Origin: Hormiphora californensis
Taxonomy: Eukaryota; Animalia; Ctenophora
DNA length: 64,000 bases
Assembly: GCA_020137815.1 (NCBI GenBank)
Contig: CM035361.1
Span: forward strand, 124,001-188,000
Direction of reading: 5' to 3'
Shown here: in pieces, positions 3,806-32,900 of the stretch
Numbering within the stretch: the stretch's first letter is position 1
How the letters are laid out: each line of letters starts with the position of its first letter
Position numbers and translations under genes: made by a program
The notes under the pieces: generated by a model
Database searches by the model: none
What the model saw: the letters and a program-made list of their open reading frames with translations, nothing else
Told to the model about the DNA's origin: nothing

Positions 3806-6800
3806 CTACGAAACAAGCGGCCTCACATCCACTTTAACCTTATTGATAAGTCTCATGACAGCCATATTCTGGTTGATCATGGGTGGATTTTTCAAATCAA
3901 ACGCCTGTGTCATTTCGAAATTTTTACACAGAACAGAAAGAGAGAGCTTCATCAGCATCATAGCGAGATGTTTTCCTAGGCATCCCCGGGATCCAGTCCA
4001 GAAGGGGAGGTATGAAAAGGAGGCCGGGTTAAACCCATCGTTCCATCGATCCGGGTTGAACTTTTTCGGCTCAGCCCAGTTGGTTGGGTCCATGTGCATA
4101 ACATACTCGCTAAAGTGAATCCTGATGTTCTTACTCCATATCTTATACGGTCCGACCTTTCCTTTTCTGTTTGTGCTGAGGGGAGAAAGATTTAGCACGT
4201 GTAAGAGGATTCAACAAGAATTATTTGCATTATGTATCCATAATGCTACGTTTCCCTGCCCTCTTCGATTTGCCATTCAACTCGCCATTAAGTTTTTTTT
4301 CTTTTTTTTTAAGCTGTCCGCAAAATGGGGATTTGTGTTTTTCGAACTTTTGAAGAAAAAAAAACGCAATTTCTCCATTTGCATTTTCCCCAAAAACGCG
4401 CGGCCGATATAAAACAAATTTTGCCGCTACAGTTTATAGCCGCGCACGCCTCATAAATTTGCAATAGTTTGTGGCGCGCATGTTACTCCGCAAACTTCAA
4501 ATCGCGCGCGCCGCACGGTTGCCCCTCGCAACGAAAGTGTGACCAAAAAATGTCCCTCTACCGATTAGTTAGTATACCAAAATGTCGTTTTCGAATTCTA
4601 ACCCTGCTATGCCTTTTTACAAAGTAAAAAGGCATCCGGGTGGATGCCTTCGGCATCCACCCGGGCAGGGAAAAAATGCAGATCAGACTCGGTCTCGATA
4701 GCATTTGGCTTACACACTTGACACACGTGTAACGTGTTGGAGAAACGTGTTGATAATATTGGTAAAGTGGGCTTGGTAAATATGTGTGTGTGAAGGAAAG
4801 CAAGGAAAGGCGGACAACAACCATGATCTCAGCATTTTAAAACTGAAGTAATACTTTCAATGTCATCTACGTCGTGAGATAAGGACAAAGTGTGTAGTTA
4901 ATCCATAAGAATAAACAATTTACAATGCATCGTAAATATCACTTACAGGTAATTTCGAGTTCCTCTTAGTAGGGCAGGGCCCATTCGAAGTCCTTCCAGC
5001 AAGCATTTCTCAGTATATTCCAACCTGAAATGATATTTGAAATTATTGGAGTACAATTGATTTAGTAGTAGTACTTAATAGTATATATTATGTATTCACA
5101 AGGCCATTCACAAAAAAAACAGCAAAGTTGACTATTTCTTAAACATTCGGTTTCACGAAAGATTTTAACGAATGTGATTTATGGACCGATTTCTTACTTG
5201 GAAAGATCTCTGAAATCATTAATCTCGGTTGAACGGAGTTCAGTCATAAGCTTGCTCTGCACTTCAGGTTCTTTATCCAAAAACATGAAAAGGCTACACA
5301 ACTGTTTCACCATATTATCCATCACCAAACAAACCTGAAAAAGAGAATAACTTTGATACCCCCTGCATTCTGTTGCAGACACATGTCATGTATGCCGTCT
5401 GTACAGCAGACTAGGGGGACTCTGACAGCTGGATTAATCTCGCTTACCGTCATAAGATCATCAACAACGCTCTCAATAACAGAAACCATATTCCTCAAAA
5501 CTTTCCCATCATCTGACATATTCGCTTCAATCAAGAGGCCAATGAGATCATCTGATTTTTGCTCACCCATTCCCTTAAACTCCTCCGTTTTCCGGGCAAC
5601 AATTGGCATCAGATCTTTTCGCATTTTTTGGATCAGCTTGGTCATGTCAATCTAGCGAGGGGGTGATTACTGGTTAGAGATCACCAGGGCTTGGCCTGGT
5701 TATCTATTACCTAGAGGGCTCGCTTGGTTGTACAAAAACCGATAACTACATCGAACCCTCCCAATTTTCCCAGTTCTGTTACATTTTTAGACCCTCAAAA
5801 CGACACTGAAGTTTAAACAGTGTTATCTGTATTAGTGTAAGCTGAGGCTACGTACCTTATCTTGAGACATAAAGTATCGATATCGGTCGAAGAGAGGTTT
5901 CGGAATCGCCTCCAAAATCTTGAAAACATGGTCAGCAACAACCTCCGGCGAATAAAAGTCTTGGAGGCCAAAGACTTGGAGATAGGCTGCAAATGTAGTA
6001 AAAACAGTAGCAATCGACAAACTTATACTTCGTCATTGTAAACGGACCAAATCCTCCCTGTATATGGCCTTCATTGACTACCAGAAGGCGTACGATTCGA
6101 TCCCACACTCCTGGATTCTGAAATCAATGGAAATGCTGAAAATAAACCCACAGATCATACGACTGTTCGAGGCATCGTTCCAGCAGTGTATAGTTAATTT
6201 AGTCCAATCCAGCTCCACCTTAGGCAAAGTCCACATTAAAAGAGGCCTCTTCCAAGGAGACTCTGTCTCCCCGATACATTTTATTATAGGACTGATCCCC
6301 CTATCCTTGCTCCTAGCTGCCCAAGGAAGAGGCTACACACATTTCTGATCCAGAAGCACCCACCACAGATATTGATATTAACCCACGCCTCTATATGGAC
6401 GATCTTAAACTATACGCTAGCTCGAAAGAGGGCCTACAGCAGCTGTTGGCAGTCACCGAGAAGTTTAGCACAGACATTAACATGTCCTTTGTATATCCAA
6501 ATGTGGAGCACGACATCGTGGACGGAGTCAGAAGTCGAATGCAGGGAATAGATCTACCGAGTGGAAAGACAACCCGGAAGTGGAAGATGGTGGATATAAA
6601 TACCTTGGTATCCTGGAGGCTGACTCGATTCTACATCAAGAAATGAAAGCCAAGGTTAAGACCGAATACACCAGAAGACTTAAGAAACTACTGTCTTCCA
6701 ACCTGTCTGGTAAAAACCTCGTCGTTGCAATCAACACGTGGGCAATACCGGTGATTCGATACGGTGCCGGAATACTGATTGGACCACCACAGAGGCCAAG

Positions 6801-8298
6801 GGACTGGACCTAATTACTCGGAAAATCCTAAGAAGAGGGTTCTTGAAATACAACAGCGACGTTGATCGTCTATATGTGAGCAGAAAGAAGGGAGGAAGAG
6901 GCCTCCAGAGGATTGAAGACGTTATAGTAAGGGAAGGAACAGGACTAGCGACGTTCTTCAGCAACTCAACTGATCCCAAGATAATTGCACTCAAACAAGC
7001 AATGGGAAGAGAAGGAATGCTGACGGAACTCCCAGAGGAGGCCGAAACCCTGACAGAAAGACTGGAGGCGCCCTGATAGAGAACTGGAAGAAATAATCAC
7101 TGCATGGACGTTTCCTGAAGCAACTTGAAGAAGGGGATGCGACCCTGATGCGACCTGGGCCTGGCTCAACAAAGAGAGCCTCAGCAGATACACCGAAGCT
7201 GATGTATTTGCTGCCCAGGAGCAAGCCCTCGCACAAACTGGCTGACAGCTGCTATCGAGAAACAACCTGGAGAGTCCGAGAAGTGTCGCATATGCAACCA
7301 GCATAACGAGTCAGTCGAACACATCCTAAACGGATGTCAGAAGCTGGCCAACGGTGACTATAAGCACAGACACGCCGAGTAGCTGCTGCCCTACACTGGG
7401 GAATGTGCAAGGACTATGGATTTCCTGCTGAATCAAAGTGGTGGAGCCACTATGCAGAGAAAGTTCTCGAGAATGAGAATTACAAGATCCTCTGGGATTT
7501 CCACATCCAGACGGACAACCCCATTGAGGCGTGCAAACCCGACCTGTCCTCCTGACAAGCAAAAGAGGGAGGCACTACTCATCGATGTCGCCGTTCCAAA
7601 GGACCGATTAGTCTCTGACAGAGAGCTGGAAAAATCGAGAAGTACCAAGAACTGAGGAGAGAGTCACACGAATCTGGGAACTTAAAAGGCACGGTCATTC
7701 CCATCGTGATTGGAGCCCTTGGCGGAGTTGCCCCCGACTAGAAGTACTTGATGGCTATAACCCGCCAATTTACCCCTCACAGCTCCAAAAGTCAGCCCTC
7801 TTCACTCGATGAACCACGCTCCGAAGTCCTCGATATGTAATCAGCCTCCTGTATCCCCACTAGATGTATTTTTGTATTGTTTTTTACCGTTTCACCCGTT
7901 CCTGCTTGCTCTTAGACTGCCTTAGATCCCGTTCCAGTCGTTTTGTTCCAGACGTTTTGTTCCCGATAGGTTGACTCTTCTTAGATTCCGTTCCAGCAGG
8001 CTGAGCTTCTTTCCAGATAGTTTAGGAGGTCTTTTGCTCCGCCACCATGAGCTTTACTTCCCCTATTTATTTTTCCTTACCTTAACCAATAGTCATTGTT
8101 CAACCTACCCCTTTGTACATTGTTCTACCTACCTTTACTCCGCAGGCCCTCCGGGCCCTCAGATCCAACAGGATCGGGCTCGGGGATTCAACCCTGTTCC
8201 CACATGGGACCTTACGGTCCCATGTGGGAGTGGTGCGTGTAGTGGACCGAGAGAGAGAGAGAGAGGAGAGAGAGTGAGAAGAGAGAGAGAGAGAGAGA

Positions 8299-11806: not shown

Positions 11807-12030
11807 CAGTGGTCATCAGACATAATTGCCATATCTCGACGTGAAATTCGACGAGAAATTCGACGTGGAATGCGCCGCGTATTCGTAGTGAGAGAGACGT
11901 AAAGACTAACGAGAGAGAAGAGTTAAAGCGTGACAGCATTTGCTTAGTGCGGCGTGTCTCTCTGATCTGGTAGAATTCCTCATCGAATCCCACGTCGAAT
12001 CCAACGAAGGATTATGTCGGATGACCACTG
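11807..12030. mobile_element. MITE with CAGT termini
   Basis: cagtggtcatcagacataat ... attatgtcggatgaccactg, with further internal inverted similarity. Confidence 0.65.
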
Positions 12031-12704
12031 TAAGGCATTAGGCAGATTGAGCCCCGCCGTGGTTTCCTTGAACATTCAGCCCGCCCTATACTTTGTAGTT
12101 CACGAACCAACAAAAACAGTCCTGAAACTACTGGTAACGTGCATAAAGGTCCGCCTTGTTCATTTTCCGTGGACTTTCAACTTGTCTCGCAAAAGACAGC
12201 ACTCTCTGAACCGGGCCGTGCGTGATGTTTTAGTTGTGCAGTAGGTATGACAATTTTTTCGTGTTTATCCGTTTATAATAAGATTGCTAAAGTCTAAGAT
12301 AATGATTTTCCCGCACTGTTGCGCCATTCTTTAGACCCTCAGCTACCACGTACAAGTGGTGGTTTTCCGCAGCATGCTAGGTTAAAGTTTCACCGGGCAC
12401 GCCCTGCTTTTTGTGATATTCTGGAGAATAGGAGATAATCCTACTGCTATAATTACAGTGGGACCTCGATTTACCATTGCACCTCGATATACCGTGCAGT
12501 ATACCGTCATTGTTGTTTTAGCATAATCTGATTGCACAGCATCTTACTCCTTCCATGTCCACCAGAATTATTATTTTTCCTTGCACCCATTGCATTTTGT
12601 TATTTTACACGCACGTTCATTAATTATTTTGCTTTTTTGTTATTCTATCGATCACACTTTTTTGATGTTTTAGCTTTCTAACCCCTATTCCTCTCCCTAG
12701 CACT

Positions 12705-15700
12705 ATGACAGATGAAGTCCCTGCTGATGGGGAAGAGAAGGATCTAGGATCCCTGGCCGTGTTTAACAATCAAATCGCCGGACATAGGGACGAAAAACCA
12801 ACCGAGACCCCTAGTATGTGAACTTTAGTTTTAGGGCCAGTCAAGATTGTCTTGATATGCTTATGACTGGCGTTAATAAATGTATCATTACTCTTATACT
12901 TCATTCGTAAAACTCAGAACTTATATGAGTAGTATATGCTGGTAATTCGCGGAAATAAAGCGAGAGTCAGGGCGATTAGAGTAATGTTAAGGAAGTGAGA
13001 GGTATGAGAGAGAGAGGCATGAGAGAGAAGTAGTGAGTTCAAGATCATTTCTCTAGAAATAGAACCATTGAACTGTGCATCGTTTGCCATCGTACTGAAG
13101 TCCCTCGCACACATCATCTGACACACGATGAAAGACGTAGCGCGCGACGACACAGGAGTTAGGGACTCCGCGCGAAATTCAGATCTTTTTTCCCACGACC
13201 CAGTGTGTGCCGCGCATAGTCTCCGATTGAGCTGACAAGGGCCAATGCAACTGATATCAAATATCTTGTTTGTGTATCTGCTAATGGAATTCCTTTTCAG
13301 GTTTCTTTACAAGTGGAGATGGTAAACTTTACAAAAACATATCATATGATGTCCGAGGAGAGAGGGAGTCCGCTTTTTACAAATCCGTTTTTAGTGAGGA
13401 AAATCTGGCCGGTTTCAGGAGATTTATGCCAACGTAAGATGGTTTGGCCGACACTAACATATGTTGATATCAACATTGTTGATAACAAAATGTGTTAGTA
13501 TCAACCATTGATTCAACAATCACAGCCTTCCGCAATCCGTATCTCGTAGTCGTATCGTCTATGAGTCCTCTACAATGGGAGGGCTCATTAGAGGTATTAG
13601 ATGACACGATAATATAACCGATCCCTTTCTCTATCTCCTCTCTATCTGATCAAATAAGGTCATCTGGGAATTAGTAAGCCGATTTTATGAGGGTGCGAGA
13701 TTAGAATCTATAAAATTAAAAGAGAGACAGCTGTCTGCTAGAAAAAGGAAAAATAGTACTACTATAAGAGAAGCATGCAACACAACAATCCTGTACAATT
13801 ATATCGCTACGAAGCGTTATAAAGGGACAGGATAGTTGTGTAGCATCTCTCTTTCTTTTAGCGAAGTTGCTCTCCCTCTCCTTTCTAACTCATCTCGGCT
13901 CTCCCTCTCAGCTCAAATTAATTTGTGTTTCAACTATATAGTTTCAAACTTTTCAACACTACTTTAAGCAAATTAATTTGAGCTGATGATGACGTTTCAC
14001 GTCGAAACCGTCCCGATTATCTTTTCCTGAAATAAAATCTCCGAGTCGTCTGCAGTCCTAAATAAACATTATTTCATTGTATCACTACTGAACATACTCT
14101 GCTCTGCTGGTTATGGGAAAGGGACCAAGCTTGATAATAATTTAATCTGTATCTCCCTCTCAGATTTTACAAGACAACTTTATATCGAGGTGTTAGCTAT
14201 CTCTGTCTAGCCGACGCTTGTCATGGAATGAAGGTAAGCTTTGTTGAGTAACTCAACAAGCTAGGATTATTTCAGATTTCTACCCTTGTTGTGGTATATA
14301 TCGAATTCATTCCTCCATTTATTATCCCCTCCGGAAAATTACAAACAATGAGAAGGTATGGCATACAGCATACTGTATTTAGCCGATGTAGTCACACAGA
14401 AATCACACATATGCTACTATTGTCCCGAAACTAACCCCTACCCCTCACAGTCACACAACATGTTACACGTCATGTAACACAACCTGTTGCTAGGTAGCGT
14501 GTGCTGCTGATATAAAAGTGGGCACAGTTGATATATACAGTCTGGATAGTGAAAAGAAGAAGGAGGTGCACCGGAAGAAAAATTTGGGCATCGCGCCGAC
14601 CCTTGGGTTCCGGTTTGCTGGTGCTAAAGTTTATAAACCTGCCTTGAAGACTACAACGACGTATGATAAGGTAGATGTTATGTTAGGTTTGTTTTGTTCA
14701 AACCGGGGCGCGGGGAGGGAGGGTCGAACAAGGCAATGTTAGGTATCATATTTATAGGAGCAGGGAGTTGGGGGGCAAGGGAGTTGGGGGGGCCAGGGAG
14801 TTACTGGGTAAGGAGTGGTTTGAGTAAAAAGGTTTTGGTGCTGTCTCGGTCTGGCAACTCTAGACCTCGTTTTGATTCTCAGATCGGGTCGCCAGACAGT
14901 TCTAGTGCCGAAATTCATATTTCATGGCTTACTTGACTTATTGAAATGAACATGTACCATGTCACCCTCCTCCCCATAACTAATAACTATTTTACTTCAG
15001 AAATGGGGCTTGTCGTTTACGCTAAAAGACGCTGCTAAAATGACGGAAAGTTACTTTGATAATGGTGAGACGATAAGGAAAGATGTCCTTCCCAATATTA
15101 TAAGGTACTTTGCTTGGGTACATCGTGTCCTGCAATTCTTCTCCAAATTTCCTAATTTACCGCCTTGGATAGCATGGTTCATTTGATGAGCCCCTGTTGT
15201 GCTAGGACTAAATCTGTCTAGTTTCGTCACCGTTTTGATTGACAGATCAGGACTACCTCACTAACAGTATTCACCTTGGTTTCAGTCAACTACAATCCCT
15301 TCGAGAGTACTACACCACCCAGACCTCCTTCTGGTTATGTAGAAGCAGTCTCCTGATGGTATATGACGGTGATACAATGGGTGTTTCCCTGATAAAGATG
15401 ATCGATTTCTCTCATTATGTACCCCAGGTTGGTAAAGTTTTGTTCAAACCCGGGGCGCGGGGAAGGAGGGTCGAACAAGGCATGGTTGGTTATAATTGGT
15501 ATGTTGCGGGAGGGCTGTTAGAGCATTGGCCAGACAGCTCCCCCACCGCAGTTGAAATTGCAACATTGTGCCCAGTTTGCTTCCAAATATTTAAAGCACT
15601 ATTAACCTTTTGGGTATTTGAAAGATTGGGGCACTGGCCCCCAGTTAGATAATGACCCTTTCTAATTCTCCAGGTTGACCCATCGGACAACACTCGTGTT

Positions 15701-15781
15701 GAGATAGGTCTGGACAACCTGGTAGACATCCTGACGCACATAAAAGATGGAACTACTGAACAATGGAAGATGAAGGAGTAG
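12705..15781 (+). CDS. IPMK: Inositol polyphosphate multikinase (IPK family), 7 exons
   Basis: Exons ~12705-12813, 13300-13433, 14164-14233, 14493-14670, 15001-15104, 15286-15427, 15674-15781. Motifs NQIAGH, RGERESAFY, DIKVG, SSLLMVYDG, MIDFSH and GLDNLVDIL. Confidence 0.88.
13940..13982 (+). other. Retroposed spliced-leader exon sequence, copy 1
   Basis: agtttcaaacttttcaacactactttaagcaaattaatttgag, one mismatch from 32540-32582. Matches the recalled ctenophore SL. Not followed by a GT donor. Confidence 0.8.
13983..14012 (+). ncRNA. Minimal hammerhead-ribozyme core (Penelope pLTR type), probably incomplete
   Basis: CUGAUGA-U-[GACG-UUUCA-CGUC]-GAAA-CCGUC. Stem I is not formed with the SL. 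aataaa motifs follow. Confidence 0.6.
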
Positions 15782-16771
15782 AAGATTTGGGAGATGATTT
15801 ACACTCTAATTCTGGATGTAAAGAATAAAGATATCTTTGGGACACTATTTTATAAAGGATTGGGTACTTTTTGGAACTTGGAAGGACTGTGAATTATCAT
15901 TGTTTAGCTTATCTACTTTTAGGTTCTCTGTATGGCGGCGCCATACCCCATTTGACAGTGCACTCAGATGGGTCGCGGCGCCAGACAGTAGGTTCTTAGA
16001 TACTTCAGAGAAGGTTTCACTTCCTATTTTAGATTTTTTACAGTTAAACTTGAAGAAACCTCATCAAACATATTTTATATCCCTCACCTTTCAGAGCATT
16101 CTCCAGACATACCCTCAGCAAGCCCCCTTTGCAATTAAAACTATTATATTGCTGACATTATGGTAATACGACTACAAGCGGCGCTGTTGAGTTGAGTGGA
16201 CAAACCACCCACTCGGAAGCTTGCATGGTGATTTTCCCTCGAATTTGGGAAAACAATTAGATGGTCCGCTTTGTATTCTCTCTGCAGTTAGAATAGTTTT
16301 AGAAACTTAACCAGATACAACCTTACGCCATATATCTCATTTTTGAATATTTTTTAGATTTTTGGGGAAAAATTATTATCTATTCAGCTGTCAGAAACAG
16401 ATGGTTATGTACTATACGTGCTACTAGAACATGTTTAAATGTGTGAAGGTCGGGGAGAGATATTTATCGAGAGTTGTATCGGATATTTCCTTCGACCTTC
16501 ACAGCTAGCAGGTTGATAATGTATATCTTGTAATTTTCATGTGTATTATATTTAGTTAATTTCCTCTGGATGGTATGCATACCATAAAGTAACTTGTCGT
16601 CTTGTAATAACGAAACGGGACCAACTTGTAAAAAGTACCCAAATTGTGAGGTGAAAAGTAAGAGGAGGGGTTGTGCCAAGAGACAAGAGTTCACTGTCTG
16701 GCGGTGCTAAGTTTTGATAATCAAACAGCGAGTGGCCGAGGGGTCTGGCACTGCCAAACAGTGTTCAAGGG

Positions 16772-32539: not shown

Positions 32540-32900
32540 AGTTTCAAACTTTTCAACACTACTTTAAACAAATTAATTTGAGCCAAAATGGTTGACGATT
32601 GTGATCAAGTGGAGAAGCAGAAACGTAGACTCAAGGAGCTGCGTGATGACGACACTGCTAAGGTAAAGAGACTGATCGATGCCTACAGCCCTACTGTTCT
32701 CCACAACACTAACGTTAAAAACTGAAACGTTTTTCTGACGACACGCTAGAGCAGGCCGCGACATCCCTGGGATCGGGGAACAAGAGGTACAAATCTAAAG
32801 CTTCCCTGATTGATTGGCTCAATAATGGCCATAGAAGGACTTTTTGAACAGTTCGGCGGTGCGTGTGGGAGCTATTACACTTTAAAGAAGGTGTACAACA
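32540..32900 (+). pseudogene. SL-headed retrocopy fragment with a degraded LINE-ORF1-like frame
   Basis: SL at 32540-32582, then ccaaa and ATG at 32588: MVDDCDQVEKQKRRLKELRDDDTAKVKRLIDAYSP...; after frameshifts ...LIDWL.MAIEGLFEQFGGACGSYYTL. Confidence 0.7.

Follow-up and report, generated by a model that had tools for sequence, protein, structure and literature searches.

A 145-nt dispersed repeat in the ctenophore Hormiphora californensis, in which a spliced leader (SL) exon directly abuts the catalytic core of a minimal hammerhead ribozyme (HHR), is a real and recurrent mini-retroelement that acts like a non-autonomous Penelope-like element (PLE), its membership of that group being putative. 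Its source was probably a Penelope-type pLTR RNA that was trans-spliced and then retroposed. The copy considered in most detail is in a 64,000-nt stretch of genomic DNA, termed here the window (contig CM035361.1, positions 124,001 to 188,000), where it is in the sense orientation relative to an inositol polyphosphate kinase gene and within intron 2 of that gene (13434-14163, plus strand). The placement in IPMK intron 2 by the initial annotation is borne out by the exons: 12705-12817, 13302-13433 and 14164-14233 join into an open frame, and downstream exons match Pfam IPK (PF03770).

The leader, its junction and the hammerhead core

The leader exon occupies 13940-13982 (plus strand), and 42 of its 43 nt agree with the 3′-terminal 43 nt of the ctenophore leader as published (PMC8527503), the sole mismatch being G at 13968, the equivalent of which is A in 121/121 metagenome SL copies. 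Those copies derive from a metagenome scan with an SL pattern in which 121 of about 130 stretches were recovered (loci numbered L...). That the 43-mer is a genuine mRNA leader, found at transcript 5′ ends, is evident from its being at most 26 nt from the contig 5′ end in 113 of these matches, with a median distance from SL to first ATG of 12 nt. Neither the SL pattern nor patterns for the repeat family had any match in the viral and prokaryote collections. Genomic SL copies number 718 and 491 in the two ctenophore species for which they were reported (PMC8527503).

The proposal that the leader is fused to the core with no spacer is correct, CTGATGA beginning at 13983. Since CTGATGA, and not a GT donor, follows 13982, the locus is not an SL RNA gene, as had also been proposed. 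A GTAAG donor is present behind the SL in only two of the 121 metagenome loci, L087 and L088, which are tandem SL RNA genes 778 bp apart on the same contig. In none of the 121 is there a CTGANGA within 3 nt of the SL or a hammerhead core behind the leader, and the 145-nt repeat family is also absent from them.

The minimal type I core (13983-14012, plus strand) is recognizable from its sequence, from a descriptor match and from its fit, except for the symmetry of stem III, to the consensus of PLE minimal HHRs. CUGAUGA (13983-13989) is followed by an unpaired U (13990), a helix II of 5 bp with a 3-nt loop (13991-13995 paired with 13999-14003), GAAA (14004-14007), C-C-G (14008-14010) and UC (14011-14012), and the cut is predicted after 14012. 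The stem II originally described as 4 bp (GACG/CGUC) is thus present, but is one pair longer and has the unpaired U before it. All of CUGANGAH, the G10.1-C11.1 pair closing helix II, GAAA and UH of the PLE-type consensus are there. Helix I is a further exception, as just the first base of its 3′ strand (14013-14017, plus strand) pairs with the SL end in the pairing table, giving 1 bp in the SL form where the PLE type has at least 2 bp next to the cut site.

The descriptor, composed after the motif had been seen, matches only this site when the two strands of the window are taken together; its null rate is 1.4e-6 per position (17 matches in 12.0 Mb of third-order Markov sequence), and it has no match in 322 kb of ctenophore loci. 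With Rfam, 12000-16000 gave weak miRNA-hairpin matches only and no hammerhead. The predicted monomer fold buries the core, and the folding energy of the element is not beyond that of shuffles (z = -0.17, not significant). A frame starting from the ATGs at 13986/13989 ends after 14 codons.

The dispersed repeat, its alternative 5′ ends and its insertion site

Contigs of public runs were aligned to 13973-14125, yielding 140 from X1 and 113 from X5, both from the same species as the window (organism A), with X1 perhaps being the sample from which the window itself came, and 30 from X7, from organism B. With three studies and two organisms represented, the motif is a repeat, not single-copy, and it occurs in a second species as well as in both samples of this one. 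In X1 the core has a summed depth of about 57,000, against up to 244,000 for a 3′ module (14035-14084, plus strand), where depth is roughly 4-fold above that of the core, and depth drops to flank level after 14084, being 189 from 14087 on; summed depth is not copy number, though the contrast between repeat and flank is several hundred-fold. Among the listed pieces, 6/24 end at 14084 and 3/24 at 14079, and the loose ends past 14084 are mutually discordant (agreement 0.57-0.63), which matches expectation for separate insertion sites. From the fixed ends and the fall in depth, the unit is therefore 13940-14084, i.e. 145 nt comprising SL, core and 3′ module. SL 5′ ends cluster at 13940-13946. The window copy is in a minority within the family at 13997, 14052 and 14069; at 14034 between about half and most of the other copies differ from it. 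No RNA read crosses the SL/core junction, and X12, which is guessed to be RNA, is without cover of 14012-14084 and so provides no evidence on expression.

The 3′ module is common to more elements than the hammerhead core is, and is likely the region where reverse transcription starts; a hairpin is predicted inside it (14051-14081, plus strand), with the fold not being significant. Sequences upstream of the module are diverse in five X1 and six X7 contigs (agreement about 0.57), and so the module may serve several families as a common recognition motif. In their plurality sequences, the loose ends of X1 beyond 14084 and those of X7 beyond 14072 have an ATG-containing stretch of 10 nt in common, which hints weakly at a longer master copy. 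No master copy extending past 14084 was identified in the contigs, whose loose ends give 30 nt only.

The core is not the only one joined to the leader. A different core is present at +0 of the SL in two X1, two X5 and three X6 contigs, clear in X1 and X5 and blurred in X6, with SL plus CTGA being followed in X1 and X5 by another helix II and then GAAAC. A third, at +1 of the SL, is the plurality of nine X5 contigs, whose agreement is only 0.54.

Stem III is odd. It is non-palindromic, since in a dimer C-C-G would place two mismatched C residues opposite each other at the centre (duplex -0.3 kcal/mol), and a variant with palindromic zero-loop stem III is found in one X7 contig. The suggestion that this stem is 1 nt shorter than typical, and the copy perhaps dead as a result, is not supported. 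The stem is 1 nt longer than in the commonest published minimal form (GAAA-C-G-U-H) and 1 nt shorter only relative to forms with a 2-nt loop. No indel at 14008-14010 is listed in X1, X5 or X7, in a listing where differences close to contig ends go unreported, and the odd stem III appears to be family-wide and not a lesion of the window copy.

A further type of 5′ side is found in X7, where the match of two contigs (agreement 0.97) to the locus starts at the AG, 13981, and is preceded by non-SL sequence, with CTAAC about 20 nt before the junction, a following 17 nt of which 14 are pyrimidine, and then TAG. Since a further seven X7 contigs continue into the SL side, one genome has unspliced and SL forms with the same boundary. 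The evidence for the non-SL form is from these two contigs of a single run of organism B, with none among the loose ends listed for X1 and X5. Judged on sequence, the branch-point motif, pyrimidine tract and TAG at the SL junction are the footprint of trans-splicing. The YAG-ending flank that non-SL copies were expected to have is thus exactly at the junction, and a splice acceptor next to helix I, a trait of PLE pLTRs, is present in organism B.

The consequences for the ribozyme are smaller than had been envisaged. As acceptor and SL both end in AG, positions 2.1 and 2.2 next to the core are unchanged by the exchange. Helix I of the acceptor form, assessed by eye, has 1 + 3 bp across an A-C mismatch, with a variant 3′ strand in X1, X5 and X7; the expectation that non-SL copies can form stem I is partly contradicted in this way, and the difference from the 1 bp of the SL form is small. 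With a shared AG and a helix I that is poor in both forms, the original idea of SL capping and self-cleavage as mutually exclusive fates is weakened. By analogy with Drosophila, a cis-spliced form could supply a better helix I strand.

Upstream of the SL in the window is an inverted arm (13908-13925, minus strand), which is, as first reported, an exact reverse complement (18/18) of 13969-13986, that is of the SL 3′ end and the first 4 nt of the core. The left arm is discontinuous, with the middle of the SL skipped, and the 4 nt at its outer end (13908-13911) are possibly flank or flank microhomology. The spacer between arm and SL (13926-13939) has a degenerate copy of the first 10 nt of the SL, whose orientation is ambiguous, the SL being nearly palindromic at its 5′ end; one X1 and one X5 contig have a 4-nt deletion at 13935 in this spacer. 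One snap-back loose end is present in the contigs over 13973-14125. In three contigs the SL 5′ end runs into the body in opposite-strand orientation, and inverted 5′ ends therefore recur on other copies. A 5′-truncated inverted copy beside the 5′ end, known from PLEs, is thus seen both in the window arm and elsewhere in the family.

A 12-bp acceptor-like sequence at 13900-13911 (plus strand) has just two copies within the window, the second being the 3′ splice site of the host intron (14152-14163, plus strand); such a 12-mer is present in 4/20,000 random 500-mers. From sequence, the pair is a possible target-site duplication, ill-fitting the family 3′ end because 67 nt at flank depth lie between 14084 and 14152, 14087-14151 being at flank-level depth. 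Joints that skip the element, indicative of an empty site, are lacking among those listed. Just 5′ of the element, 13742-13886 is a long imperfect hairpin, of raised depth and variable among contigs, that is possibly a small inverted-repeat element. Near the start of intron 2 there is also a 31-bp imperfect inverted repeat (13445-13507, 81%).

A proposed Penelope-type parent RNA and the competing explanations

Minimal hammerheads mark the pLTRs of Penelope-like elements (PMC4209133). The ctenophore core resembles these, especially that of D. virilis Penelope (Cervera and de la Pena 2014), in its CUGANGAH, the unpaired base before helix II, the G10.1-C11.1 pair, a vestigial stem III and the existence of many solitary copies. 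The D. virilis element also has an intron reaching exactly to where helix I begins on its 5′ side, and hence both spliced and unspliced ribozymes, so that an acceptor adjoining helix I and the two forms are likewise shared (PMC4209133). There, however, the splice is in cis, the AG is 4 nt before the core and a 2-bp helix I is spared; the ctenophore repeat has its AG directly against the core and an asymmetric stem III, its splice partner is the SL, joined in trans, and the spliced product is the form that populates the genome. The searched supplement file of that paper has no ctenophore entry. PLEs also carry 5′-truncated inverted copies (PMC8557442).

The anole Poseidon element PAc (Frangieh et al. 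2024; PMC11167929) is a second point of reference. Its RT starts internally at two sites 111-118 nt past an ATG at stem II, and in vitro inserts HHR-dead RNA equally well. The ctenophore repeat similarly has an ATG at the start of stem II with the cut about 25 nt later (26 vs 24), and two adjacent 3′ ends roughly 100 nt downstream, at 91 and 96 nt past the ATG equivalent to that of the anole element. PAc is autonomous, with an ORF through the region, whereas the repeat has a stop after 14 codons, 3′ ends that are 5 nt apart, and the SL as its 5′ end.

A mechanism consistent with these features would have a PLE as parent and the spliceosome using the AG before the core in trans, thereby joining the SL to it. 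Reverse transcription would be primed about 100 nt downstream of the core, in the manner of the anole Poseidon RT, and as the SL replaces everything upstream, priming at the 5′-most site gives only a mini-cDNA. Fold-back or a template switch at the cDNA end would produce the inverted arm. With a helix I of only 1 bp the SL form is predicted to be likely without self-cleavage, and its cleavage would not be needed for insertion.

Coding evidence for the parent is not provided by the window: no Penelope RT or GIY-YIG domain is among the 87 window ORFs considered (86 of the 169 of at least 70 aa, plus one). The supplement of the Naiad paper, which is metadata, has no match to the motif. A broken RT remnant that matches Pfam RVT_1 is present at 5986-7076; its motifs are, we presume, those of a non-LTR RT rather than Penelope.

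Origin from Penelope-type RNA has to be weighed against several other possibilities. The foremost, itself distinctly unlikely, is a self-propagating SL-headed SINE-like family in which one or a few trans-splicings were followed by re-amplification from host read-through transcripts. The sense orientation of the window copy within an intron would suit this, and so would the lack of any acceptor-type copy among the listed loose ends of organism A, and the family, being common to a second organism, may be old. However, the SL is fused to two different cores at the least and probably to three, for which repeated events are needed, both forms coexist in organism B, and SL 5′ ends at 13940-13946 fit run-off of cDNA from a capped RNA and not read-through.

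Next in order, and at least as improbable, is trans-splicing and retroposition of an RNA unrelated to Penelope, a retrozyme-like or SINE-like hammerhead RNA having been copied by an APE-type LINE RT. LINEs with APE and RT that are SL-headed do occur in ctenophores, no PLE ORF is linked within the material scanned, and hammerheads are also known from tandem retrozymes and from SINE-like repeats of schistosomes. The absence of a poly(A) or simple-repeat tail at 14084 counts against it, as do three traits of PLEs, namely a minimal stem III, a base left unpaired ahead of helix II and inverted copies at the 5′ end. Animal retrozymes have themselves been proposed as PLE derivatives. The non-LTR retrozymes (bioRxiv 10.64898/2026.07.22.740005), for which this derivation is proposed, are like the ctenophore repeat in being non-coding and hammerhead-bearing, but they are tandem repeats with an HHR in each unit, whereas the window copy is solitary and SL-headed and the window has a single descriptor match in place of tandem HHR units.

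A chimera formed at the level of DNA or RT, by a template switch from hammerhead RNA to SL RNA or by insertion of an element into an SL gene, is very improbable. Insertion into SL genes has a precedent in NeSL/CRE-like targeting, SL sequence is extremely abundant in DNA runs, the discontinuous inverted arm shows that template switching occurred at the locus, and the RT remnant might be thought pertinent. But more than one family has its junction at the final base of the SL exon, that same junction is a canonical acceptor in the non-SL form, and no SL-gene flank like that of L087/L088 is upstream of the SL. A chance resemblance, with an ordinary trans-spliced mRNA retrocopy having a 5′ UTR that is merely hammerhead-like, could draw on the ATG within 6 nt of 44/121 leaders and the two ATGs in the core, yet is effectively refuted by the repeat structure, a high-depth body with fixed ends, and also by the 0/121 leaders with adjacent CTGANGA, the low null rate of the descriptor and the organism B variant with palindromic zero-loop stem III.

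Wider meaning and other SL-headed elements

The components are already known separately: minimal HHRs of PLEs, an acceptor at helix I, SL on Hydra transposon transcripts and dispersed ctenophore SL copies. Rotifer Athena elements may also be discussed in connection with trans-splicing. No description of an SL joined to a hammerhead, or of SL-headed Penelope derivatives, was found in titles and abstracts, a search whose scope took in little of the subscription literature. In Hydra, about 30% of transposable element Iso-Seq reads carry the SL, transposon RNAs using the host SL machinery, and Penelope has 0 occurrences in the available text of that paper (PMC12220107). SL relics in DNA also mark retroposed RNA in the SL-tagged retrogenes of dinoflagellates (PMC5585692, PMC12014239). 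The available portions of these Hydra and dinoflagellate papers contain no joint of SL to ribozyme core and no amplified SL-headed mini-element. The leader is the same as in the dispersed ctenophore copies of Schultz et al. 2021 (PMC8527503), which treats them as leader loci attracting mis-mapped reads and, in the text available, does not mention Penelope. Many of those copies appear instead to be 5′ ends of retroposed elements, and the repeat offers an explanation for many of them together with a warning that not all are SL genes.

The role of hammerheads in Penelope elements has been stated to be unclear (PMC8557442). The genome can be regarded as keeping a record of RNA intermediates, with the SL marking the true 5′ end of the RNA and fixed 3′ ends the likely priming sites, and copy counts in existing assemblies become a test of how templates are chosen, how priming occurs and what the pLTR acceptor is for. 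A bolder proposal, which we consider doubtful, is that the ctenophore Penelope cycle has SL trans-splicing built in as a programmed step, with ribozyme formation set by splice choice. If so, an acceptor against the core would let the spliceosome divide a tandem precursor into units with caps and remove helix I, the 5′ end would be made by the cell and not by the ribozyme, and the choice between unspliced, cis-spliced and SL forms would decide whether a ribozyme can form. Internal priming would then mass-produce SL-headed mini-elements, and these, together with SL-headed LINEs, would account for a large part of the 'SL loci' that ctenophore genomes contain in their hundreds.

Ctenophore retroelement RNAs do receive the SL. 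Four metagenome loci (L039, L042, L064 and L028) are two-ORF LINE-type elements with the SL directly at the 5′ end; ORF2 of the first three has Pfam matches to APE endonuclease and RT, and L028 is incomplete with no Pfam match. The window has a second, independent genomic SL copy, with the canonical A allele and outside the element, at 32540-32582 (plus strand). In 32540-32725 it is followed 5 nt later by a 45-codon ORF, which matches the ORF behind an internal SL in L081 (39% over 51 positions, pairwise E 2e-6), and the segment probably represents the 5′ end of a further retroposed family headed by the SL. The L081 ORF has no homolog among longer proteins. An inverted end on the SL copy at 32540 was considered and dropped, as the near-palindromic start of the SL explains it.

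Rfam gave no match on nine metagenome loci, including a motif shared by L015 and L071. In these two, about 14 nt past the SL and before coiled-coil ORFs, there is a near-CUGAUG, a 4-bp GC hairpin and AGAAA. The motif is hammerhead-like and non-canonical, the nearest atlas clusters to the L015 protein are unnamed ctenophore proteins, and the coiled-coil ORFs of the two loci look related.
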